From assembly GCA_003164155.1 (NCBI GenBank), contig PLSG01000414.1:1-26235 (forward strand): 26,235 nucleotides of DNA, written 5' to 3'. This document shows, in pieces, positions 1-14,047 of this stretch; within the stretch, counting starts at the first letter, position 1; every line of letters begins with the position of its first letter. This DNA is from Parachlamydiaceae bacterium (lineage in GTDB: Bacteria; Chlamydiota; Chlamydiia; Chlamydiales; Parachlamydiaceae). The notes beneath the pieces are model-generated. The model was not told the DNA's origin, searched no databases, and saw only the letters and a list, made by a program, of their open reading frames with translations. A program made the translations under genes and the position numbers.

Positions 1-89
1 CAATCACTAAAGCAATCAAGGATGGGGGCAAGTAGTGATTTGGCAGGCTTTTTACTAGACGAAGATCAGAGCTTAGCTTGGGCGTCCTA

Positions 90-670
90 CTAAATAGAAT
101 GACCGCTATACTTCTCTCAAAAGTGCATTTTAATCACAGCGCTAACGCTATGCCCGGATAATTGATCTGCCAGGAGAGCTGAAGATTGCCCCTTCTTTGA
201 TTTGCGTCTTCTCTATCCAAGCCTTTTGTGTAGAGACGGGGGCAGATGTCTTTGTCTTTAGCGTAAGCTAAGTAAACCACCTGCGCGGTGTCAGATGTTT
301 TAGATTGCAATAGGGTGGGCTCTGCGCCCTTATCGTTAAATAGAACACGCTCTAAGTCCAGGCTGACCTATTCTGAGCGCCTGAAAGCCCCAAAGAAAGC
401 CACGGTCAATATGGGCTCCTCTAATTTTGAGCAAGCCTCCTTTAAGTTTAACATGTGGTTCTACATTTCGAGTCGCGGAGCCAAGGTAAATAATTTACTG
501 GATGGATAAGGAGTCTTTGGTAGATTGCGAGTAATCTTCTCTGGATAATTGATGTGGTGCCTTTAACTGATATTAAGCATTTTCCCAACCTTACCAGCTT
601 AGGTAAATTTCACGTAGCACTCCCTAAAGTGGGAAAATATTTCTTTATCCGTAGAGACTTTTGTGATACG
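90..670 (-). pseudogene. Degenerate tyrosine recombinase/integrase (Cre-like INT_Cre_C type)
   Basis: Manual minus-strand translation gives ...PILTVAFFGAFRRSE*VSLDLE...LLQSKTSD...AYAKDKDICP (box I RRSE at 371-391). After one extra base in the G5 run at 238-242 it continues CPVSTQKAWIEKTQIKEGAIF, and after a further shift LSGHSVSAVIK...KYSGHSI* (box II GHS at 96-110). In-frame stops lie at 563-565, 461-463 and 368-370. Ends are approximate. Confidence 0.75.
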
Positions 671-777
671 TTAAAAAAAAATTTCACTTCTGTAAAAATC
701 ATTCATTGGAAGCACAAGCGATGGCCAAAAAGAAGGGCGCGGGAAAAAAACATCCTTCAGTCTCCCAGTCACTACCT

Positions 778-977
778 ATTGACAGGCTCAAATTAATCGC
801 CCACGATCTCTTGGTAACGGTTGAACAAAACAATTCAGTCGATTGGAGTTTGAAGGAAAATGCTTGCGCTCGCACGAAGGTCGCTCTCAAGCGAATTTTA
901 CGAAAGCACATGTGTACACTAGAAGCATTGACAATATACTAGATGCTATCCTCCGGCAAGCTGAAGTCTGTAAATAA
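778..977 (+). pseudogene. hsdR: C-terminal fragment of type I restriction endonuclease R subunit (DUF3387-like tail)
   Basis: LKLIAHDLLVTVEQNNSVDWSLKENACARTKVALKRILRKH, then after a frameshift DAILRQAEVCK*. This follows the HsdR tail pattern (IARELV...IDW..RESARAKMRV.VKRILRKY...VLEQAE). The rest of the gene is absent. Confidence 0.7.
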
Positions 978-1020
978 ATAAGTTTAGTTGATTTCATTAT
1001 ATCACAGGAGGTATGATCCT

Positions 1021-1521
1021 ATGCCTAAAAAAGTGAGGTCCAAGATGGACAAAAGCAAGGCTGTTTCCGTGCTCGATGTCGCAGCATATATTCTAGAGAA
1101 ACAGCCAAAAAACCAGCCAATTACCGCATGGAAGCTACAAAAGTTGGTCTATTACTGTCAAGCATGGTCTCTTGTATGGGATGAGCAAGTTTTGTTCAAA
1201 GAAAAAATTATTGCTTGGGCAAACGGACCGGTTATAAAAGAGCTCTATGAACAACATAGAGGCCAATTTACTGTGGTAAAACTTCAAAATGGAATAGTCG
1301 ATCATCTCACTTCAAATCAAAAAGACACAATCGATCATGTCGTGATGGCATATGGTGAAAAAACTGCGCAATGGCTAAGCGATTTGACTCATATTGAGTT
1401 TCCTTGGATAGAAGCAAGAGAAGCCCTTAGTCCAGGTGAAAGAGGTAAAATTGAAATCAAATTGGCTACCATGCATGAGTACTACAGCAGCATTGGTGTC
1501 GAACATCAAATTAACAGCTAA
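1021..1521 (+). CDS. Panacea/SocA-family (DUF4065) antitoxin
   Basis: Motifs SVLDVAAYIL, KLQKLVYYCQAWSL, LF.EKIIAWANGPVIKELY and THIEFPW.EAR. Start moved from the track's 988 to ATG 1021 because AGGAGGT (1006-1012) lies 8 nt upstream. Confidence 0.9.
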   Translation: MPKKVRSKMDKSKAVSVLDVAAYILEKQPKNQPITAWKLQKLVYYCQAWSLVWDEQVLFKEKIIAWANGPVIKELYEQHRGQFTVVKLQNGIVDHLTSNQKDTIDHVVMAYGEKTAQWLSDLTHIEFPWIEAREALSPGERGKIEIKLATMHEYYSSIGVEHQINS

Positions 1522-1552
1522 AATCATTTAACCTTCTCAACACTTATCACTA

Positions 1553-2002
1553 ATGTCCAAAAAGAACGCTAAGCAGGACTTCAAGATACCTAGGATTGTC
1601 TCAGCTCCATTGGGCGACAAAAAGCCTCGCGTTGCCGTTTTCCCCAACGAACAGTGCTTGCCGGAGTTTAGAGCAGATCAAATGGATATGGATGGTCCAT
1701 GGGGCTGGTCGAGATTTGATGTAATACATTTTCAAGAAATACTAATCAAAATTTTTGAATGCCAAAAAATAACTTGGCAGATTCTTTATCAAAAAAAGTC
1801 TCATCTAGTTGATATTGCTAAACTTATTCCTGAAGCTCAAAAGCGATTACGAATAATAGGTAAAGACGACCTTGATCAGCTCTACTCATTACGAATATCA
1901 GGGAAAAAGCGAATATGGGGCATTAAAGAAGGTAATCTTTTATGGCTTCTATGGTGGGATCCTGAGCACGCTGTTTGCGAAAGTATTGGCGCCAACAATT
2001 AA
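1553..2002 (+). CDS. Putative toxin partner of the Panacea antitoxin (possibly RelE/ParE-like fold)
   Basis: 149 aa, 31 nt downstream of the antitoxin on the same strand. The C-terminus LYSLRISGKKRIWGIKEGNLLWLLWWDPEHAVC has the beta-strand pattern of RelE-like toxins. The CDS is well supported; toxin function is inferred from context. Confidence 0.65.
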   Translation: MSKKNAKQDFKIPRIVSAPLGDKKPRVAVFPNEQCLPEFRADQMDMDGPWGWSRFDVIHFQEILIKIFECQKITWQILYQKKSHLVDIAKLIPEAQKRLRIIGKDDLDQLYSLRISGKKRIWGIKEGNLLWLLWWDPEHAVCESIGANN

Positions 2003-2115
2003 TTGTTTTTTCACGCGATGCTCACCTTTTTTCAGTAATTTGTATTTAAATTTTCAGTCTATTTTTATTTCAGATTGCGATGTACTGGCGGTACATTTAC
2101 TTGCATATTGCACCA

Positions 2116-2303
2116 TCAACGCCCTTGTAATTCATATGCTCGAAATACCATTCTCGCCTGCTTTCATTAAATCCCTACTTAATCTCGCCGATATCGGCTA
2201 GGGAGCTTTCACTCGCCTATCAATCTCTTTGTAATCAATCTCCGTTGGACTCTTTTTTCTTTGTGTGGCTACGGAATAGATCCATTTGCTCAGGGATAGG
2301 GTA
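2116..2303 (-). pseudogene. Frameshifted paralog of the small ORF at 2405-2685
   Basis: Minus strand reads YPIPEQMDLFRSHTKKKESN/IDYKEIDRRVKA/LADIGEIK*GFNESRREWYFEHMNYKGVD, with two frameshifts and a stop. Segment 2116-2227 matches the reverse complement of 2482-2594 at 95/113 positions by hand count. Confidence 0.8.
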
Positions 2304-2404
2304 GGGGATGTTGTATAGCTCTGCGCAGATCTCCTGTACAGTCTACTAGAGAAAAGCGACCGATTGGCGTTTCTGAGGCACTCCGTAAAACTATAGAGCG
2401 CGCT

Positions 2405-2685
2405 TACCCGATCCCACCTACCAAATGGATATGTTTAGAAGTCCTAAGAAGAAAAAGGAGCTCAACTTGATAAATCTTGAGGAGATAGATAGGCGAGTGG
2501 AAGCTGCCCTGGCTGATATCGGCGAGATTAAGCCTCGGTTTGACGAAAACCGGCGGGAATGGTACTTCGAGCACATGAATTACAAGGGTGTTGAGGCTTT
2601 CAGCTAAACAAGTGCCGTGGCATGTGCAAAGAAATATCTGGAACTTCTGAGAGAGCTATTCATTAAAGAGGCCAAGAAAGGATAA
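2405..2685 (+). pseudogene. Small protein remnant, possibly HicB-like fold, interrupted by TAA at 2605-2607
   Basis: Track ORF 2425-2607 continues in frame past TAA as TSAVACAKKYLELLRELFIKEAKKG* to 2685. Homology to the inverted copy extends upstream to YPIP at 2405 across a frameshift. The fold assignment is inference. Confidence 0.6.
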
Positions 2686-2824
2686 GTCGTGCGAAAAGGG
2701 ATCTAACACCCAAAGCAATCTGCATCCAAAATGAGGCGCATTCTAAAATTCATTGCGTTGACCTATGCCACATATATGAAAAATAAATTTATAAACGTAC
2801 CGAGTAACAACAAGGAAATTGAAT

Positions 2825-3409
2825 ATGTTATTATCGTATATCCTGTTTGCTGAATTTTTAGACAATCTATCCAAGGTTGGTGGATTTCTTACTGGTATCG
2901 CTTCTATTTTTGCTTTATACATTGGGAATAAGGCTGTTAAAGATTATTGGCGAATAAAAAGATCTAATGCAGCTTCTGCTGCACTGAGCAAATTTAGGGC
3001 TTGCATTGATGATATTATAGATGTTGTTCAAAGCAAGGATCCTTATAAATACCCTTCTTTTCCCCAAGAAATATCGATTGACAAGGAGGAAAAAGTTCAT
3101 CCAGAAAGACCTGCGCGATTAATTAAAACGAAGATTCAACAACTCAAAACATACCTACATGATCCAATTAGCCAGCTTTCAGGTAAAGAAGGGACATACT
3201 TATTGGAGCTTTTTTCAAAGTTGCAAAGCTATTGTCCACATCTTTCTAGTGTGGTTCATGTCGCAATCCGGGCAGATGAAGGCTGCCCTGCTGCTAAAGA
3301 ACAGCTCAAACCAATAGAACATTATCTTGATGAATATAAAACTGTACTAAAAGGTATAAATGATGAAGCAGAGAATTTTTTGATACCGATCATAGAAACA
3401 AAAAAATAA
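2825..3409 (+). CDS. Hypothetical protein with one N-terminal membrane anchor
   Basis: Long open frame with hydrophobic segment GGFLTGIASIFALYIG followed by a helical soluble region. AAGGA lies upstream of ATG 2825 (the track start at 2819 is TTG). Confidence 0.75.
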   Translation: MLLSYILFAEFLDNLSKVGGFLTGIASIFALYIGNKAVKDYWRIKRSNAASAALSKFRACIDDIIDVVQSKDPYKYPSFPQEISIDKEEKVHPERPARLIKTKIQQLKTYLHDPISQLSGKEGTYLLELFSKLQSYCPHLSSVVHVAIRADEGCPAAKEQLKPIEHYLDEYKTVLKGINDEAENFLIPIIETKK

Positions 3410-3454
3410 ATGTATTCAAAATAGGTGTAAAGATTGACCACTTTACCAAATATT

Positions 3455-3574
3455 TCAATTTGAAAAAAACATAGTGTAATATACGCTTGAATACATTGCA
3501 CCACATCCGCAAAGAGATAAAGAAGCAGAAAACATAGCTAAATAACTGGCAAGGCGAAAAATTTTGCTTCTCAT
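3455..3574 (-). pseudogene. Truncated lipoprotein gene sharing its signal peptide with 4351-5106
   Basis: MRSKIFRLASYLAMFSASLSLCGCGAMYSSVYYTMFFSN* (39 aa). The first 21 residues nearly match MKSRIFRISSYLAMFSASLSL. It has a lipobox-like LCGC and stops just after a T7 run. Confidence 0.75.
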
Positions 3575-3701
3575 AGAAGACCTATTTGTTTAGATGATAA
3601 TCGAAGTAATTTGGTGTTTAATTTTTCATGGTTGATGATTTTAATGCGGACTTTAGTGGTATCAGATCCGGAAGCTAATTTTACAAAATCTGTGTTGACT
3701 G
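3513..3701 (-). repeat. Copy C of the traD 3' end + spacer + lipoprotein 5' end
   Basis: Ungapped direct repeat of 5045-5233, 166/189 identical by hand count. Encodes VNTDFVKLASGSDTTKVRIKIINHEKL, versus TraD VNTAFVKLASGSGITKVRLNIINHDKL. Confidence 0.95.
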
Positions 3702-4145
3702 TATCTGATACCACAGTGATATGAAAAATACCCAAAGAGGGGTGATTAGAAAACCAGCTACAGGAATAAGAAATGTAAGCTGCCAAGAGAAACGTACTTT
3801 TTCATAATGCCCTCTAGAATAATGAAGCCACATCAAAAAAATGCTAATTGACACAGACAGAGGAATCCAGGCAACCAGGAACATATACCATAAGCCAATG
3901 GGTTCAGGCATCTTCGGATTATCAAATATCATTGCAGAACACAGTACAAGATCACGCAAGAAAGGAAAAAGGAGGATATAAGCTATTGTCCAACCGCTGG
4001 CCCGGTAATAAGCTCTTTTTTTCTCTTCTATGATTCCTTTTTCTGTAGGTGTGTGGTTGCTCATCTCAGTGCAAAGACCACCATTTTTGCTCGTGCTTTC
4101 ATCAGTTTTATTCAGTTGCTTCTCAGTCATCGTCATTCTCTTCAT
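3681..4145 (-). CDS. Hypothetical inner-membrane protein with about 3 TM segments
   Basis: 154 aa with hydrophobic stretches GWTIAYILLFPFL, IGLWYMFLVAWIPLSVSISIFLMWL and LTFLIPVAGFLITPLWVFFISLW. Its last codons and stop lie inside repeat copy C. Confidence 0.75.
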   Translation of the reverse strand: MKRMTMTEKQLNKTDESTSKNGGLCTEMSNHTPTEKGIIEEKKRAYYRASGWTIAYILLFPFLRDLVLCSAMIFDNPKMPEPIGLWYMFLVAWIPLSVSISIFLMWLHYSRGHYEKVRFSWQLTFLIPVAGFLITPLWVFFISLWYQIQSTQIL

Positions 4146-4170
4146 TTTTTGTTTATCTTATAAATCATAT

Positions 4171-4283
4171 TGTTTAGAGATCCAATAGCTTAGCTCTGTC
4201 AATTATGGGATAATTTAGAGTTTGACTTTAGCCATACCTAATCCTGAAGGCAGCTTGACAAAGGCTGTATTTACAGGAAGCTA
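4171..4283 (-). repeat. Copy B, a diverged traD 3'-end remnant
   Basis: Minus strand reads LPVNTAFVKLPSGLGMAKVKL*, versus TraD LPVNTAFVKLASGSGITKVRL (16/21 aa). 4224-4283 matches 5181-5240 at 44/60 nt. Weaker similarity continues to TGTTTAGA at 4171. Confidence 0.9.
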
Positions 4284-4292
4284 TATGGATTC

Positions 4293-4337
4293 TGAAAGGT
4301 GCCGTGAAACGGGCCGGGCGAGCCAGGCCCCTTTCAC
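4293..4337. other. GC-rich repeat/hairpin element (possible terminator or protein-binding site)
   Basis: TGAAAGGTGCCG (4293-4304) and TGAAACGGGCCG (4305-4316) in tandem, plus an inverted copy GGCCCCTTTCA (4326-4336). No strong U-tract, so terminator function is uncertain. Confidence 0.45.
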
Positions 4338-4350
4338 AAGGAATCGCCGA

Positions 4351-5106
4351 TCACCACATGATATGCGTTACGCCTTGAGGCTTTGTTTTTTCAACAGGTT
4401 GTGCTGCTGAAGATCCATACTCAAAAGTCTTGCTAAATTCGAGAATATCCTGCTTAAGCTTTTCTACATGCTCTTGTGGAGTATGTTTGTTTCCTGGTAG
4501 GGTCACTTCTTGGTTGCTTAGCAAAATAAGCTTATCCTTGTTTTTGAAAACCAAGTAGCCTCTTGTTGAGGATGGATATTGCCCACATATGCGTAAGACA
4601 GACATTTTTCCAATTGAAACAGCCACAAAAAGCATGTTATCTTCTATCATTTCTTCTTGTAAAATCTCAATATCTTGAGCATTGTCTACGTCTTTGAGAA
4701 TCCCTATGCCAAAATTGGTAAAAGCATCATGGAGATCTTCTCTATCAAAGCGTTTATTTTCTAGAGCAGGCGAAAACAAGATCTCTGCTTTTTTGAAATT
4801 CGCTGTGGAACTGTAAAAAGCTACACAAGCATGGTTTTCAAATAGAGTGTCTTGAGATATATATCTACCTTCACCAAAGTCATCTGCTTGACAGGAGAAG
4901 ACGTTATTTGGAGCATAATAGCGGTGATCTATGATTTTTCCTTGTAGTGGAGGTGGATTCCTATCTAAAGGATGAAAGGTTTCCGAAAGAGGAAGCCTAG
5001 TTCCATATAGCATATCGTGGCTGCATCCACTAAATAGCATTGCCAGGGATAAAGAAGCAGAAAACATAGCTAAATAACTGGAAATGCGAAAAATTCGGCT
5101 TTTCAT
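4351..5106 (-). CDS. Lipoprotein of unknown function, directly downstream of traD
   Basis: 251 aa with basic N-terminus, hydrophobic core and lipobox LFSG|C at residue 28. Starts 26 nt after the traD stop. Confidence 0.85.
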   Translation of the reverse strand: MKSRIFRISSYLAMFSASLSLAMLFSGCSHDMLYGTRLPLSETFHPLDRNPPPLQGKIIDHRYYAPNNVFSCQADDFGEGRYISQDTLFENHACVAFYSSTANFKKAEILFSPALENKRFDREDLHDAFTNFGIGILKDVDNAQDIEILQEEMIEDNMLFVAVSIGKMSVLRICGQYPSSTRGYLVFKNKDKLILLSNQEVTLPGNKHTPQEHVEKLKQDILEFSKTFEYGSSAAQPVEKTKPQGVTHIMW

Positions 5107-5240
5107 AGGAGACCTATCTGTTTAGATGATAATCAAAGTGATTTGTGCTTTAATTTGTCATGGTTGATGATGTTGAGGCGAACTTTAGTGATACCAGATC
5201 CTGATGCTAATTTTACAAAAGCTGTGTTGACTGGAAGCTG
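5045..5240 (-). repeat. Copy A (functional) of the traD 3' end/lipoprotein leader repeat
   Basis: Reference copy for the repeats at 3513-3701 and 4171-4283. Confidence 0.95.
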
Positions 5241-6821
5241 GAGTATTTGCGTGGGTGACACAATGGGCTTGCTTTTTTTCTGCATAGACAGAGATACACC
5301 ATCGCGAGTTTCGTGGGCTCCGTAGGATATCCCCTCTTGTCTTTCGGTAATCTCTCGTTCTCCAAAAGCTCGGGAGATCCTGTCCGCGATAAGAGGATCC
5401 TCTTCCTGGAAAACAATTTTGGTGGCTGTATTGGCCGTGATGACTTGAGAAACTTCACGTCCATAGATTTCATCTAACTGGGCGGGGGTTTGCAATACCA
5501 AGACTCCACAGCCACCATATTTTCTTCCTTCGGTTAACAAGCTTTCCAAATCCTTCACGCGTTGCAGCGTAGGGAGCTCATCGATGATAAACCAGATGCG
5601 TCTATCAAGATTGGGTTTAAGAGCAAGCAATCCTCTTATGGAAGCTGAAATCCAAGCGGCCATAAGGGGGCGCAAAATTGTTCTTTGCTTAGAGACGCTT
5701 TGGATGAACAGCCAGGAGTCATCATCTCTTTCTAACCATTCACGGATAGAAAATGGCGTAGAGGTGTCTTCTAATGCCCTTAGTGAGGATAAAAAGGTGG
5801 AGGATACAGAACGGATTGAACTGGCGGTTTTTTCTGAAGATAGATCCATATGTGCAGCTGCGGGCGTTCCAGCCATGAGCTTACACAAATTGGCCAGGGA
5901 CTCGTATTGTAGCCACTGGACTATATCTGAAGTTTTCCGCGTGTCTGCGAATTTTTCCAACAGCGTAGAAAAAACGGTCTTGCTCGCATCCCTCCAATAG
6001 CTGTCGTGATCGCTGTTGCTATGAGGGATAAAGGACTCGGCAATATCGGCATAATCAAAAGGGGTGTCTCCTTCTGCCCAAGGATTCCATTGGGCGGATC
6101 GCTTGTCAAACGGATTGAGTATGATGTCTTTATCTGGGCGATAATATTTTTCTACAAATATGCCGCAGGTATCTATGATGATTGTTTTTTGCTTCTGATC
6201 GCGGATTTGCACAAGCAAGTGGTGCAAGCAGTTCGTCTTTCCGCTACCTGTTCCGCCTGTGACCATCATATGGCGGGTTTCTGTGCCTTTCACTAAAGGC
6301 AAGGTTCCAATGAGAAAATTGGATGCTTTCTTAGTAAATTTTAAGCGCCATGCGAGCCATCTCGGAGATGAGATTTTCAAGCCAGATATGTGTTTTTCTG
6401 TTTTTGCAGAAGTGCCCTTTAATAGGAAAAAGGCAAGAATGGCTACAAAACATACGCTTGAGGCGATGATTGACTTCAATGCGTTTGAGTAGGCTTCATA
6501 CGCAAGCTTAATAACTATGGGCTGAGTTAGCTTTTTCACGTACTCTAGGGGAAGTTTTGGGCTATAGCTGTAATTTGCTTTGGAGATCTGAGACAGAAAT
6601 TTTCCATCCACTTCGAGATCCGTGAATGCCCCTGCATAGAACCAAGCTTTAAGATAATACCAAGTAGCTGAATAGGCTACTCTAGGAACACGGGTCATGA
6701 AATAGGTAAACGTACCCAGTCCGAAAAGGAGAGAGCAAAAAATAGCTACTCTAAGCACTTGTCGCAGCATGCGCAAACGATGCGAAATTATTTGTCCGCC
6801 TTCAGTTAATGTGTGTGTCAC
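5133..6821 (-). CDS. traD: Type IV coupling protein TraD
   Basis: Two N-terminal TM segments, Walker A GGTGSGKT, Walker B WFIIDELPTL, and LLTEGRKYGGC..L.LQ. GTG start with AGGAG upstream. Confidence 0.95.
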   Translation of the reverse strand: MTHTLTEGGQIISHRLRMLRQVLRVAIFCSLLFGLGTFTYFMTRVPRVAYSATWYYLKAWFYAGAFTDLEVDGKFLSQISKANYSYSPKLPLEYVKKLTQPIVIKLAYEAYSNALKSIIASSVCFVAILAFFLLKGTSAKTEKHISGLKISSPRWLAWRLKFTKKASNFLIGTLPLVKGTETRHMMVTGGTGSGKTNCLHHLLVQIRDQKQKTIIIDTCGIFVEKYYRPDKDIILNPFDKRSAQWNPWAEGDTPFDYADIAESFIPHSNSDHDSYWRDASKTVFSTLLEKFADTRKTSDIVQWLQYESLANLCKLMAGTPAAAHMDLSSEKTASSIRSVSSTFLSSLRALEDTSTPFSIREWLERDDDSWLFIQSVSKQRTILRPLMAAWISASIRGLLALKPNLDRRIWFIIDELPTLQRVKDLESLLTEGRKYGGCGVLVLQTPAQLDEIYGREVSQVITANTATKIVFQEEDPLIADRISRAFGEREITERQEGISYGAHETRDGVSLSMQKKSKPIVSPTQILQLPVNTAFVKLASGSGITKVRLNIINHDKLKHKSL

Positions 6822-9660: not shown

Positions 9661-10315
9661 TCTTGAGCTGTGCCTCCATATATTTGAAAAGCTCTAGGAT
9701 GTATGCTTTTTCTTCTGGTTGAATAAGGCGCCTATAAACGCGATATTGATATGTGCGGATCTTTCCCCCACCGAAATCCAAGATCCAGCAAATCGCATGC
9801 TTTTGATAATGGTTAGCCTGGTATATGACAGGCCCTGGATTGTTCTCGTCAGAGAGCTCTTGTTGACAGAGAAAAGTTTCATAGCAAATCGTATTTTCAT
9901 CGTTGGGAATCATTAGCAAAGGACATGTGTATTTTACTTTTTTGAGCTTCTCGCTCCCATGCGTAGTTACTGTTGCAGTCAATTTTTCAGCCTTTGATTT
10001 GGCAATCGAAAATAGGCTGCTTCCTGTATTTTGGGTTTTTTTGTTGTCTTTGAATCTCGAAAGAGCAAAACTGTGTTCTGGATTATTCTTATTTTCATGC
10101 TCAGGACTATAGGCACATAAGATTTCGCCCTCGTTGTCTTCTACAGGGACTAGGGTTCTTTTCCATTTTTGATCCGGTGTATCAAGGGCTTTTTGGATAA
10201 TTGCATCAATTTGGTTGTTTTGTTTGCCATAGGTCACGAACATATCAAAAAAGGCTTCCGTTCTGGATGTGACTGCTAAAAATAAAAATCCAATGATTAG
10301 GCATAGGTTTTTCAT
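9647..10315 (-). CDS. Secreted hypothetical protein between traH and traG
   Basis: Signal-peptide-like MKNLCLIIGFLFLAVTSRTEA. GAGGAG lies 7 nt upstream of ATG 10315 (track start 10330). The 3' end overlaps the traG start. Confidence 0.8.
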   Translation of the reverse strand: MKNLCLIIGFLFLAVTSRTEAFFDMFVTYGKQNNQIDAIIQKALDTPDQKWKRTLVPVEDNEGEILCAYSPEHENKNNPEHSFALSRFKDNKKTQNTGSSLFSIAKSKAEKLTATVTTHGSEKLKKVKYTCPLLMIPNDENTICYETFLCQQELSDENNPGPVIYQANHYQKHAICWILDFGGGKIRTYQYRVYRRLIQPEEKAYILELFKYMEAQLKNVDV

Positions 10316-10326
10316 GTGATTTCTCC

Positions 10327-11682
10327 TCAATCAATTAAAATTTGTGAGTTGATTTGCTTTTCTAAAATCTGCATTTTCTCAATTAACCGCATCTCTAAAT
10401 CCAAAGCCTTTTGTGTGCGGGATTCATATCCTTGTACCAGGGAACGAACCCTCTCCAAGCTTTTCATATATGCATCAGTTTCTGTGGAGTAAGCGCTAGA
10501 AAGTCTAAGCTGCATGCATCCTTGCATAGCAGTTTCTATGGCTTCGGCAATGACTTGTGCAAGCACGTCCCAAGCGACAATATCAGCTATGCTTTGGAAG
10601 TCAAATGGACAGGGTTTGCCTTTGCGATATGCGGTTATCACATTGACGAATTTGTATAAGGGCAATCTGGTAGTGGCTAATAGCCCTTTCTCTTCATCGT
10701 TGAGAGGTTCATCGTGAATGGCTTTATTCTGCATGCTTACAAGCGTTTTGCGAATTCGTGCAAACCAGCAATTTTCGGACGTTAAAATTTCATCTTTTTC
10801 CAAAACGGTTAGGCATTGCTCGGAATCTTTGCAGACGTACTTAACGATTTCTCCGCCTTCGATAATGCGTTGTAAAAAATCGCTGTTTTCTGCTTTTGAT
10901 GGATAGTGGCGTGGCGCGCCTTCTTTTTCGGCAACTACAACAGTTCCTAAAAGGGTCATGTACATTTCCGCTAAATCCTTGTTTTGATTCCCTTGAAACA
11001 AGGGATGAAGGTGCAAGACTTTCCATGTGAGGTTATATTCTCCGCTGAGTGGCAAAAATTGCTTAACTGAATCTCGCGTTCTATTATCTTGTATAGTCCC
11101 TCCACATTTATGACGCGCTTCTATATGGTCTTTAAAAATTTGATTGGTCGTTCCTATTGATTGACAAATGTGCTGGCTGGCCATCTGGTTGGCTGGCCAG
11201 ATAGAACCGATGAGTCCAGCTGCTGTTTCACAGCTATTGATGCCCAGGGCATTCATAGTGTTCGCCCAGCTTTGCATTTGCCGCATGGTATTTGCAATTT
11301 GAGGAGAGACCGTTTCTAAGCCCAACATAAATGCATAACCTGTGGCGTTAGAGGCTACAGCCTTCATCGTTTCTACAATTTGCTTGCCGCTGATGAAAGA
11401 AAATCCGCCGGTATAAATGTCTATGCCGCCACAGCCCGCTTGGATATTGGGAAGATGCGCATTAACAAAACGCGTGGTTTTAATGGGAGAGCGGACAACC
11501 ATACCACCACCTCCGCTATAATATCCGGCCGCTTGGCTTTTATAGAGCAAATCGCCTTGCGAGACATGTACGTCAGCTCCTGTTGCCTTAAAAAGGCGTT
11601 CTGGCACCGTATACACCTTATCGCCAGCGGAAATATAATCAGAGAGGAGGATGCAGAAGCATACAAAACAAATCCTTACCAT
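10327..11682 (-). CDS. traH: Pilus assembly protein TraH
   Basis: Signature AGCGGIDIYTGGFSFI, FMLGLETVSPQI and NSCETA. Confidence 0.95.
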   Translation of the reverse strand: MVRICFVCFCILLSDYISAGDKVYTVPERLFKATGADVHVSQGDLLYKSQAAGYYSGGGGMVVRSPIKTTRFVNAHLPNIQAGCGGIDIYTGGFSFISGKQIVETMKAVASNATGYAFMLGLETVSPQIANTMRQMQSWANTMNALGINSCETAAGLIGSIWPANQMASQHICQSIGTTNQIFKDHIEARHKCGGTIQDNRTRDSVKQFLPLSGEYNLTWKVLHLHPLFQGNQNKDLAEMYMTLLGTVVVAEKEGAPRHYPSKAENSDFLQRIIEGGEIVKYVCKDSEQCLTVLEKDEILTSENCWFARIRKTLVSMQNKAIHDEPLNDEEKGLLATTRLPLYKFVNVITAYRKGKPCPFDFQSIADIVAWDVLAQVIAEAIETAMQGCMQLRLSSAYSTETDAYMKSLERVRSLVQGYESRTQKALDLEMRLIEKMQILEKQINSQILID

Positions 11683-12431
11683 GAATCCTTCTCCTGAAAT
11701 TGTAGGATGACGTTGTCCTCGATCTGGCTGATCGTCTCCATGCCAAACGCCAGAGGCGTGGCTTTTCTTGTCGTATGATTGACAGCAAAAAGAGCTGGGA
11801 AAGTGTTTAGCTCCATTTCATGCGCTATCTCTGTGTCAGCTATTGACTGAGGGAATTCGCGCAATATTATGCCATCGATTGAAATCGGTTGAACATCCCA
11901 GTCATAGTCCAATGAAAACTGTTTGACAACTGTTCCAAAGGCCTGAGAAAAGGGGTGCCTTCCTTCGTAGATGAATAGCAAGGAGGAGCTTTTGGCCAAT
12001 TTGTTAATCAGCTTTTTGCGATTTTCATAGTCGAAAGCTTTTTTTACTTGGGCCCCATATTGGGTTGTAGGGGAAAGTTCTGCTAGTTCGGGATGCTCTA
12101 AAATCACCCTTTGCCAGGTATAGGCAAAATTTTTAGCTTGATCTACCCACTTCTTCTGCATGCTTATATAGGCCACGATATTTTCATCAGAGGGTTCTAA
12201 AATAGCTTTTGATAAAGAGCGTTCAAGGTCCTCTTTGGCAATAGCCAGGACTACCTTGGGGTCTTTGGAAATTTCTAACTTTGGTTCTTTGGGTTTTTGA
12301 GGTTCCAGGAAATCATGGTACCATGCCCATCCTTCACCGCATCGATCCTTCCAAGGTAGCGGTTGGCTAGCCATCACCATAGCTTTGCTGGAAAGCATCA
12401 AGAAAAATGAAAATATCCTAAAAGAATGCAT
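11676..12431 (-). CDS. traF: Pilus assembly protein TraF (thioredoxin-like, no CxxC)
   Basis: GWAWY motif, LERSLSKAILEPS..NIVAY, V.PISIDG and PALFAV; lies between traN and traH. Confidence 0.92.
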   Translation of the reverse strand: MHSFRIFSFFLMLSSKAMVMASQPLPWKDRCGEGWAWYHDFLEPQKPKEPKLEISKDPKVVLAIAKEDLERSLSKAILEPSDENIVAYISMQKKWVDQAKNFAYTWQRVILEHPELAELSPTTQYGAQVKKAFDYENRKKLINKLAKSSSLLFIYEGRHPFSQAFGTVVKQFSLDYDWDVQPISIDGIILREFPQSIADTEIAHEMELNTFPALFAVNHTTRKATPLAFGMETISQIEDNVILQFQEKDSW

Positions 12432-14047
12432 CAGGAATTTTCCTCCAAACGCATTTTGAGGCGCTCTTCAATTTTCTTGATCTTTTCACTGCTATTGACA
12501 TGCGGGGGTAGATCAAAAGCCTCTGTGAGATTGAGCGTGGAAAAATCTAATTTTTTGATTTCTTTTTGTGTTAAACCTCGGCAGTCGGGGGTTTCAGCGC
12601 TTCCCCAATCTATTCCCAGCTGTTTTCTGGCTTCCTCTTGAAAAATGCGCGCGAGCTTGGTAGGAAATACACAAAAAACATGGTCGCTGTGACTGGTCCA
12701 CAGATCTAGAAATTTTTCTTTTTTAACTCCCAGGTAATGGCTAAGACCTTTTTTCTGACTTTCCATTAAAACTATTTCATCTGCGGTGCATTTGCTGAAT
12801 TTAAGTTTTGTCATTAGCCCATCCATCTCAAAGCAGCAGTCATACATCACATCGTTGACAATGCTTTTGCCGCATTTCTGGGTGTTTCCTTTAAATAACT
12901 GCACATGCCTCACATCTGGGGCTTGCGAGCCTTGGAGTTCTTTTTTCATTTCGTCAAACACTGCCAATTTTGTGGTGACATCAGGGAGCTGTTTATTTGG
13001 TTGATAGGAAGTTGTTTCCCATAGCTTTGGATCAGCTCCATATGCATCCTTCAATTCTCCCGCAGCTTGTGGACTGCGCGTGATGCATTGGAATACTTTC
13101 TCCCAGGCCACGCATTGCTTCTTGTGTTCCTGTATACATATTTCTTGTGTCAATATGCAATGTTTTTCTTTAAGAAAATCACAAGCGATTTGGTGTTGAT
13201 ATCGACACTTCATATTGTACGACTTGATCCAAAAGGGACGTTTGACTTTTCGCCCTTCGATGAGCCGCGTTTCCTTTTTTCCATTTTCTATGGACACCAG
13301 AGTGCAATCAATATTGTCGAGCAGTTCTTTGTTTTCCATGTGCCAAACATCCAGCTCTTCCCATTTTTCTTGTGAAATTACTCTTTCTTCCTCTACAAAG
13401 ACATTGCAAGGCTCAGCATCTTCTACGTGTGTCCAATCGCTAATGATAAAATCTCTATGCCACATCCCTTTTTCTTTGATGGACACTTTAAAGCTTTTGA
13501 TGGTGGGATCAGCTGCAAAAGCGCGTTCTTTGGTGGCCTTATCATCCTTTGGATGCGAACTTTTTTCTTCTTTGTGATGCCCGCGGCAGATTTTGACCTT
13601 TTTTTTATTCTCTGGTGTATATTTAACTTCCACAGATAGCACGTTATGCAGAATCACAGAGGATAACGCATTTTTAAAGAGGCATTTTTCAGTAGTGCTG
13701 TGCTCCTCTTGCTTATTTGCAGGAGGTGTTTTGTTAGTTTCCAAGATTTTGTCGCTGTGAGACACCAAGGCAGTTATCTCAGGATCCACGTTTGACGCTA
13801 AATCATCAAAGCTTTGATAAGCATTCGTCAATACATCGGTATGTGCTTTTTTTTCGTCAAATTTTTGCCCACGCAAAGCTTCAGGGGTAATGGCTTGTAC
13901 CTCTTGTGGGGATAGTTTAAAGCTTGAGGTGGCGCTTTTACCTAACGATTGGCCCTGTTTTAGGTATCCTTTTTGGCTTTCATTAGCGCAAAGGGGATGT
14001 GCCATCAATAGAGCAGCAACACAGGCTTGACAGCATCTAAACAGCAT
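12431..14047 (-). CDS. traN: Mating-pair stabilisation protein TraN
   Basis: Cys-rich, with C-terminal LFKG...CGK...DCC and FCVFPTKLARIFQEEARKQLGIDWGSAETPDCRGLT. An alternative start at 14005 would remove the signal peptide. Confidence 0.93.
   Translation of the reverse strand: MLFRCCQACVAALLMAHPLCANESQKGYLKQGQSLGKSATSSFKLSPQEVQAITPEALRGQKFDEKKAHTDVLTNAYQSFDDLASNVDPEITALVSHSDKILETNKTPPANKQEEHSTTEKCLFKNALSSVILHNVLSVEVKYTPENKKKVKICRGHHKEEKSSHPKDDKATKERAFAADPTIKSFKVSIKEKGMWHRDFIISDWTHVEDAEPCNVFVEEERVISQEKWEELDVWHMENKELLDNIDCTLVSIENGKKETRLIEGRKVKRPFWIKSYNMKCRYQHQIACDFLKEKHCILTQEICIQEHKKQCVAWEKVFQCITRSPQAAGELKDAYGADPKLWETTSYQPNKQLPDVTTKLAVFDEMKKELQGSQAPDVRHVQLFKGNTQKCGKSIVNDVMYDCCFEMDGLMTKLKFSKCTADEIVLMESQKKGLSHYLGVKKEKFLDLWTSHSDHVFCVFPTKLARIFQEEARKQLGIDWGSAETPDCRGLTQKEIKKLDFSTLNLTEAFDLPPHVNSSEKIKKIEERLKMRLEENS

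Follow-up and report, generated by a model that had tools for sequence, protein, structure and literature searches.

The 26,235-bp window analyzed here, which is an entire contig (C97) of a chlamydial metagenome-assembled genome (MAG; 3.2 Mb, 589 contigs, approximately 70% complete), carries on its minus strand an F-type conjugation operon comprising TraE, TraK, TraB/TrbI, TraC, TraN, TraH, TraG (TraG_N) and, in last position, the coupling protein TraD. Behind the intact traD gene, two further copies of its 3' end were found, displaced downstream. The 1.8 kb that follow traD probably represent a 3'-end displacement array that arose by recombination between diverged tra elements, and most likely they are scars left when related elements swapped cargo more than once. 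The traD end, at the close of the tra operon, is a genuine hot spot where cargo is repeatedly gained or exchanged; no site-specific cassette system is demonstrated there.

Three traD 3' ends at one intact coupling protein gene

The features of the array are all co-oriented and follow each other on the minus strand in the order traD, lipo251, a GC-rich hairpin, copy B, TM154, copy C, and a 39-codon lipoprotein stub. A preliminary description of this DNA had reported three traD 3' ends in this order, which is confirmed. The features that form the backbone of the argument are as follows.

5133..6821, minus strand: traD, intact, F-type type IV coupling protein of 562 amino acids (Pfam TrwB_AAD_bind, E 3e-128; TraG-D_C, E 1e-23)
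5045..5240, minus strand: tail A, the resident copy of the repeat unit, consisting of the last 35 traD codons, a 26-nt spacer, and the first 20 codons of lipo251; reference for copies B and C
4171..4282, minus strand: copy B, a displaced traD tail of 21 codons, followed by TAA and a spacer to the TCTAAACA block (tblastn E 2e-5 within the window)
3513..3705, minus strand: copy C, a displaced, decaying traD tail that has lost its stop, with a spacer and the start of a lipoprotein signal peptide (88% identity over 189 nt)

The translation of copy B is LPVNTAFVKLPSGLGMAKVKL-stop, and 16 of its 21 residues are identical to TraD 528-548, at a nucleotide identity of about 70%. Its likeness to tail A extends beyond the coding part to a common TCTAAACA block ahead of the next start codon. 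Over 20 aligned codons, the two sequences show 9 nucleotide differences in synonymous codons and 9 in nonsynonymous codons, and the divergence at nonsynonymous sites (dN) was estimated at 0.18 and that at synonymous sites (dS) at 1.8, the latter being saturated (dN/dS 0.10). All 8 changes in the first 10 codons are synonymous. Because the differences from tail A are almost only synonymous, copy B derives from a different, functional traD, and the substitution pattern indicates a long period of evolution at the end of a traD that was functional in another lineage.

The history of copy C is a different one. The preliminary description had placed it at 3701-3580, and its presence was verified, but it is longer than claimed, as positions 3513-3701 align without gaps with 5045-5233 and the unit, which may begin as far up as 3705, includes the spacer and the lipoprotein start. 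Copy C thus spans the terminal 35 codons of traD, the 26-nt spacer between the genes, and 20 codons from the start of a lipoprotein gene, which encode its signal peptide. Compared to tail A, dN and dS both amount to 0.19 (dN/dS 0.97); the family-conserved NTAF was changed to NTDF, and the stop codon TGA to CGA. According to these substitutions, copy C is a relic that decays neutrally and stems from a tail closely similar to the resident one. A search of the same genome for the donor of copy B and for a further copy of C found neither.

The conserved genes of the tra backbone end with traD in these elements, and past the traD stop codon related chlamydial elements hold unrelated cargo. In the sequence of events that we propose, DNA of a related but diverged tra element would have recombined into the locus at least twice, with one side anchored by homology within traD and an illegitimate joint of the far side inside the 3' end of the resident traD. 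Each event would have put in a foreign traD end together with its neighbor gene, so that traD stayed intact, while the old traD end, with its own downstream gene attached, would have moved further downstream as a dead stub. Two modules would have been pushed back in this manner, one made of copy B and TM154, the other of copy C and the lipoprotein stub. The route may have been one-sided homologous recombination; alternatively, two elements in tandem, followed by a deletion, would lead to the same product. The displaced stubs themselves are without activity.

That the array was created during metagenome assembly, by stringing alleles of several strains into one contig, is very improbable. The window is a complete 26-kb contig of a MAG that is fragmented and 70% complete, and copies A and C share an exact match of 34 nt, which would be compatible with an artefact. 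The longest exact matches are only 8 nt between A and B and 9 nt between B and C, and both junctions are located in unique sequence. Since the exact matches between copies are this short, repeat-driven misassembly is unlikely, and the same architecture was found in independent genomes, including one (G010) that consists of 2 contigs only.

Displaced traD ends in related chlamydial loci

The survey of traD 3' ends covered the same family (all 73 genomes), the order (400 genomes), and metagenome contigs from JGI. The traD tail of each locus was then searched against the downstream DNA of that locus, and the count was based on the 55 loci in which at least 2 kb of sequence follow traD. Displaced tails are present in 7 of these 55 chlamydial loci, namely, the window and the six loci listed below.

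L031 (genome G010): displaced tail from residue ~357; the unit includes a convergent F-box/LRR gene
L038 (G013): displaced tail from residue ~518
L079 (G089): displaced tail from residue ~495
L130 (G155): two displaced tails, from residues ~436 and ~508
L137 (G436): displaced tail from residue ~460, degenerate
L077 (G070): from residue ~551; perfect 244-nt tandem duplication

The view of the preliminary description that the traD end is a recurrent site of cargo gain is well supported by these 7 loci and by the gene content after traD, which is highly diverse among related elements. The same description had proposed a comparison of related tra loci, in which cassettes were expected to vary behind a conserved breakpoint, and had named scattered breakpoints as a result that would refute its inference. 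The variation was found, but the breakpoint is not conserved: in the relatives, the displaced tails begin between residues ~357 and ~551, at points dispersed over the final third of traD. For the family as a whole, a dedicated site-specific cassette system is not supported. Between elements, nucleotide homology stops at or just before the traD stop codon.

Most of the displaced tails in relatives resemble copy B in their mode of evolution. Purifying selection was detected in five of the six further displaced tails, with dN/dS values of 0.04 for L038, 0.13 for L079, 0.16 and 0.16 for the two tails of L130, and 0.06 for L031, at dS values of 0.35-0.9; a seventh tail, that of L137, is too degenerate for testing. 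The G089 genome contains, in addition to L079, a paralogous locus with a single tail (L081), which is 92% identical to the displaced tail of L079 and its downstream DNA and 84% identical to the intact traD of L079. Given these identities, L079 is a visible hybrid of two element lineages that were joined inside traD.

These data also bear on the possibility that a tandem duplication, or an insertion accompanied by a lengthy duplication of its target, copied the resident traD tail in situ and that the copies diverged afterward. As an explanation of the array this is unlikely, although individual observations agree with it. Copy C is neutral with respect to tail A and has a low dS, and its repeat reaches into the start of the adjacent lipoprotein gene; the repeated unit of L031 includes a paralogous LRR gene; L077 shows that a duplication of this kind, perfect and in tandem, can extend across the traD end; and insertions with target duplications of 46-420 bp that involve no mobility genes have been documented (PMC2853133). 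Copy B and five of the six further tails, in contrast, differ from their resident counterparts mainly at synonymous sites (dS 0.35-1.8), which is unexpected for copies that decay in place. Furthermore, the DNA that follows the two repeats is non-homologous in L038, L079, and L130, as it is in the window beyond the signal peptide, and the two repeats in G089 are unequally related to the single-copy paralog. Because of the synonymous divergence and the missing homology after the repeats, simple in-situ duplication is excluded for copy B and these five tails; it may apply to copy C and is what L077 displays.

Several of the loci deserve a separate comment. The duplication in L077 (G070:C3, oriented positions 1210-1697) covers the terminal 34 nt of traD together with the start of the next gene, which encodes a transmembrane (TM) protein, and it is either very recent or an assembly artefact. 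In the Protochlamydia-like genome G010, the unit made of a traD tail and a convergent F-box/LRR gene is present at at least three loci (L031, L035, and L036, all on G010:C1), and the traD end of this genome may either travel with expanding LRR effector genes or mark decay beside them. An inverted copy of a traD tail occupies positions 2-134 at the start of a 2.2-kb metagenome contig that also holds a traD end (L123, SDBV01154215.1); it may be a palindromic assembly artefact. The cargo behind traD in G013 (L038, positions 888-1379) includes a GyrI-like/Cass2 ("integron-associated effector binding") protein and a 488-amino-acid TPR protein. The JGI metagenome contigs contained no close relative of the element, the best TraD being just 49% identical to that of the window, and a degenerate pattern scan of GTDB contigs returned one unrelated match only.

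Breakpoint sequences and the search for a recombinase

The preliminary description had noted that copies B and C start at nearly the same point of traD, and this observation holds. Copy B starts at AG|CTTCC (4282/4280) and copy C between 3705 and 3701; both starts correspond to traD positions 5239-5233 and are at most ~6 nt apart. Two features are located at these boundaries.

5229..5237, minus strand: CTTCCAGTC, the 9-mer at which the displaced copies begin; single exact copy in the window
4304..4337, minus strand: GC-rich imperfect hairpin between the lipo251 stop codon and copy B (DNA fold -14.7 kcal/mol, z -1.5)

The full 9-mer CTTCCAGTC marks the start of the displaced tails both in the window and in L038, which belongs to an unrelated genus. 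Of 57 loci, only 2 have the 8-mer CTTCCAGT within the terminal 700 nt of traD, and these are the window, at -105 nt from the stop codon, and L038, at -108 nt. The codons concerned are non-homologous between the two loci, as the 9-mer encodes LPV 528-530 in the window and the LPV of L038 aligns with KPI 517-519.

Part of this evidence, together with some of the results above, weighs against a 3'-end displacement by recombination between diverged elements. The starts of B, C, and the L038 tail all fall on CTTCCAGTC, for which a rough estimate of the probability by chance is 1e-4 to 1e-3, and a distance of ~6 nt between the starts of B and C is not predicted by random illegitimate joints. In both the window and L038, a GC-rich hairpin is located 4-23 nt upstream of the displaced tail. 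Copy C carries no signal of purifying selection and, for this reason, could be an in-situ duplicate. Finally, no closely related "empty" locus that would permit the events to be ordered was found.

The observations on the 9-mer would be accounted for by a sequence-directed cassette system, in which single-gene modules that carry a replacement traD tail of ~105 nt would insert at a CTTCCAGTC core in traD. The enzyme, acting in trans, would be a recombinase, a nuclease, or the relaxase of the element, and each insertion would regenerate traD and stack the older modules behind the newer, as in an integron or in att-site accretion. The modules are compact, with one gene each, and the distance between the breakpoint and the next start codon is alike in all three copies (127-140 nt); hairpins flank both junctions, and a low dN/dS of the tails is equally expected if element-borne tails must restore traD. 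The shared breakpoints would keep a sequence-directed step alive for the subset formed by the window and L038. Nevertheless, such a system is quite unlikely as the origin of the array. The five other loci break elsewhere and lack the motif, and the frequency of CTTCCAGTC in the window and across all loci does not exceed that expected by chance. Tails A and B share AGCTTCC (7 nt) at the boundary and A and C share CAGTCAACACAG (12 nt), but no block is common to all three copies, although decay of B and C could hide a core. A comparison of the right ends of the cassettes revealed no conserved sequence, and the spacing between hairpin and core is unlike in the two loci (23 nt in the window versus 4 nt in L038). 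Moreover, the last ~7 codons and the stop codon of TM154 fall inside copy C; as this reading frame runs into the repeat, the junction is untidy and does not form a clean cassette boundary, in disagreement with the tidy cassette ends assumed initially.

A recombinase that might serve such a system was not detected. The contig has no match to the tyrosine recombinase family PF00589, even when stop codons are read through, and no recombinase-like match was obtained among the window open reading frames (ORFs) scanned against Pfam, serine recombinases not having been searched genome-wide. The small ORFs at 134-911 have no Pfam match. The "dead integrase" that the preliminary description had considered a candidate at 90-670 was abandoned, as there is neither a PF00589 match nor a Pfam match of the small ORFs at this place, nor any similarity to the split integrase on contig C556 of the same genome. 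The hairpin was likewise rejected as a repeated end of a mobile element, because it is unique in the genome; no T run follows it. The hairpin of L038 has just 19-nt partial matches to a repeated sequence that is situated mostly at contig ends in G013.

The C556 contig (L082, positions 1-4920) contains a second, decayed tra remnant. Its traD fragment (residues ~375-514), which is truncated at both ends, shares 85% amino acid identity with the TraD of the window and is preceded, at the contig start, by a perfect palindrome of ~80 nt. Downstream of the fragment are an AAA/DUF4143 ATPase, a 173-amino-acid ORF, and the split tyrosine integrase.

Known systems and the cargo genes behind traD

Several known systems concentrate cargo or repeated gene ends at a fixed place. 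At the hot spots of SXT/R391-type integrative and conjugative elements (ICEs), cargo is inserted by an unknown mechanism at fixed intergenic borders of the conserved conjugation backbone, with boundaries at gene ends. The traD locus resembles them in that cargo gathers at a gene-end border of the conjugation backbone, but differs in its stacked partial copies of traD; we know of no description of SXT/R391-type hot spots that leave stacked partial copies of the flanking backbone gene. In att-site accretion, as exemplified by ICESt1/ICESt3 with cis-mobilizable elements (CIMEs) at fda and by islands at tRNA genes, tandem elements are separated by repeats of the 3' end of the target gene, and an element-borne copy restores the gene. 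This process depends on a tyrosine recombinase and on a core that is identical in sequence and fixed in position. Repeated 3' ends and a restored gene are common to both cases, whereas at traD the search for an integrase was negative, the copies lack a core shared by all, and the breakpoints of relatives are scattered.

The closest parallels are the tips of rhs genes, the orphan CdiA-CT modules of contact-dependent inhibition (CDI) loci, and the effector-immunity arrays of type VI secretion systems (T6SS). In rhs genes, CDI systems, and the T6SS arrays of Vibrio, incoming modules displace the resident 3' end, which is then stacked with its downstream gene behind the intact gene (PMC2935791, PMC5361080). 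These arrays contain partial copies of varying length and no integrase, and homology-facilitated illegitimate recombination or circular intermediates have been proposed for their formation (Jackson 2009, PMC2935791; Kirchberger 2017, PMC5361080). The traD array is likewise made up of an intact gene and, behind it, copies of the 3' end that are co-oriented, truncated on the 5' side, and mostly silent or decaying; each displaced end heads a different gene, and the older modules would have been pushed back by the newer. The array recurs at the homologous locus of other genomes with partial copies of varying length, and its displaced ends once terminated other functional alleles, copy C being the exception. 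Dissimilar are the nature of the gene, which here encodes the type IV coupling protein of a chlamydial conjugative element, and the repeated part, which is a conserved TraD tail rather than a variable toxin tip with a cognate immunity gene as its partner. The downstream genes encode ordinary envelope proteins and are not demonstrated immunity genes, and the tails are diverged alleles (dS up to 1.8), whereas those of the toxin loci are near-identical to the adjacent gene. One-sided recombination, as invoked here, has been demonstrated during conjugation (PMC3240628). In the insertions with long target duplication, genes that lack mobility functions lie between direct repeats, tens to hundreds of base pairs in length, that often overlap the 3' end of a neighbor (Furuta 2010, PMC2853133). 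Genes of this type between direct repeats at a gene 3' end are also seen at traD, but the repeats described in that work are near-identical and derive from one target, whereas those at traD are mostly old alleles that, in G089, are unequally related.

In the literature searched, 3'-end displacement was not reported for conjugation genes, the pattern being known from toxin loci. With the present data, a pattern described until now for polymorphic toxin loci would extend to a conjugation gene, and the data suggest that conjugative elements of obligate intracellular bacteria gain cargo and stack it at the far edge of the transfer operon, which remains unbroken. The displaced gene ends may be read as a record of past exchange between element lineages, and orphan traD tails may be helpful as a simple marker of inter-element recombination in chlamydial genomes. 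Should an enzyme lie behind the shared CTTCCAGTC breakpoint, gene-cassette arrays would be built here in a new manner, and the tail swap in chlamydial F-type elements would yield a cargo array that resembles an integron and at no time inactivates the coupling protein.

The genes that follow the three traD ends are listed below; they are unrelated to each other, except for the common signal peptide.

4351..5106, minus strand: lipo251, a 251-amino-acid lipoprotein with lipobox FSGC (ORF and lipobox)
3681..4145, minus strand: TM154, an intact 154-amino-acid protein with three TM segments (ORF and TM segments)
3455..3574, minus strand: lipoC, a 39-codon stub with signal peptide and lipobox LCGC, followed by unrelated residues and a stop codon (translation compared to the N terminus of lipo251)

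The two intact cargo genes probably ride on the transcription of the tra operon; a scan of 3300-5400 for promoters and terminators gave no signal that exceeded shuffled controls. The mature domain of lipo251 models well as a PsbP/Mog1-like fold: its predicted AlphaFold2 structure has a confidence score (pLDDT) of 74, with a core above 85, and Foldseek matched it to PsbP and Mog1 (E 1.5e-4, cyanobacterial PsbP). Homologs with 30-60% identity were found in 12 of 400 other chlamydial genomes, and in every locus inspected they have chromosomal settings free of traD. TM154 is a full-length, complete member of a family of small membrane proteins that is present, often in multiple copies, in 65 of 399 other chlamydial genomes (66 of 400 when this genome is included). 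None of the 11 loci checked has traD within ~1.5 kb of a TM154-family gene, and the genomes of the same family with TM154 homologs are mostly without traD.

In the F plasmid, the exclusion genes encode a lipoprotein, TraT, and an inner-membrane protein, TraS. An assignment of the two cargo genes to this type was considered and rejected, as lipo251 and TM154 match no Pfam or NCBIfam family and no toxin or immunity family, lipo251 is PsbP/Mog1-like, and both families are chromosomal elsewhere, without consistent linkage to tra genes. By their distribution, lipo251 and TM154 belong to chromosomal chlamydial families and not to known exclusion genes. In a further genome (L111, G336:C14, positions 9853-12795), genes of the lipo251 and TM154 families directly follow each other in this order, a second TM154-family gene lies 2 kb on, and the neighbors are housekeeping genes; the two families may be functionally linked outside tra elements.

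Another family was noticed directly after traD in several chlamydial tra elements. It comprises proteins of 162-178 amino acids with 3-4 TM segments and an N-terminal FFVNKP-like motif, and its members include L034:9547-10047, L037:3918-4406, and the ORFs directly after traD in L073 (G093:C2), L074, and L077. Two members were scanned and have no Pfam match, one of them having no NCBIfam match either. The family is a candidate for a type IV secretion system accessory or entry-exclusion protein. Elsewhere in the cargo region of the window, positions 988-2002 contain a gene for an antitoxin-like protein with a SocA/Panacea domain (177 amino acids, Pfam E 7e-16), followed by a 149-amino-acid ORF with a weak match to the MAG6450 family, and this pair is probably a toxin-antitoxin system.

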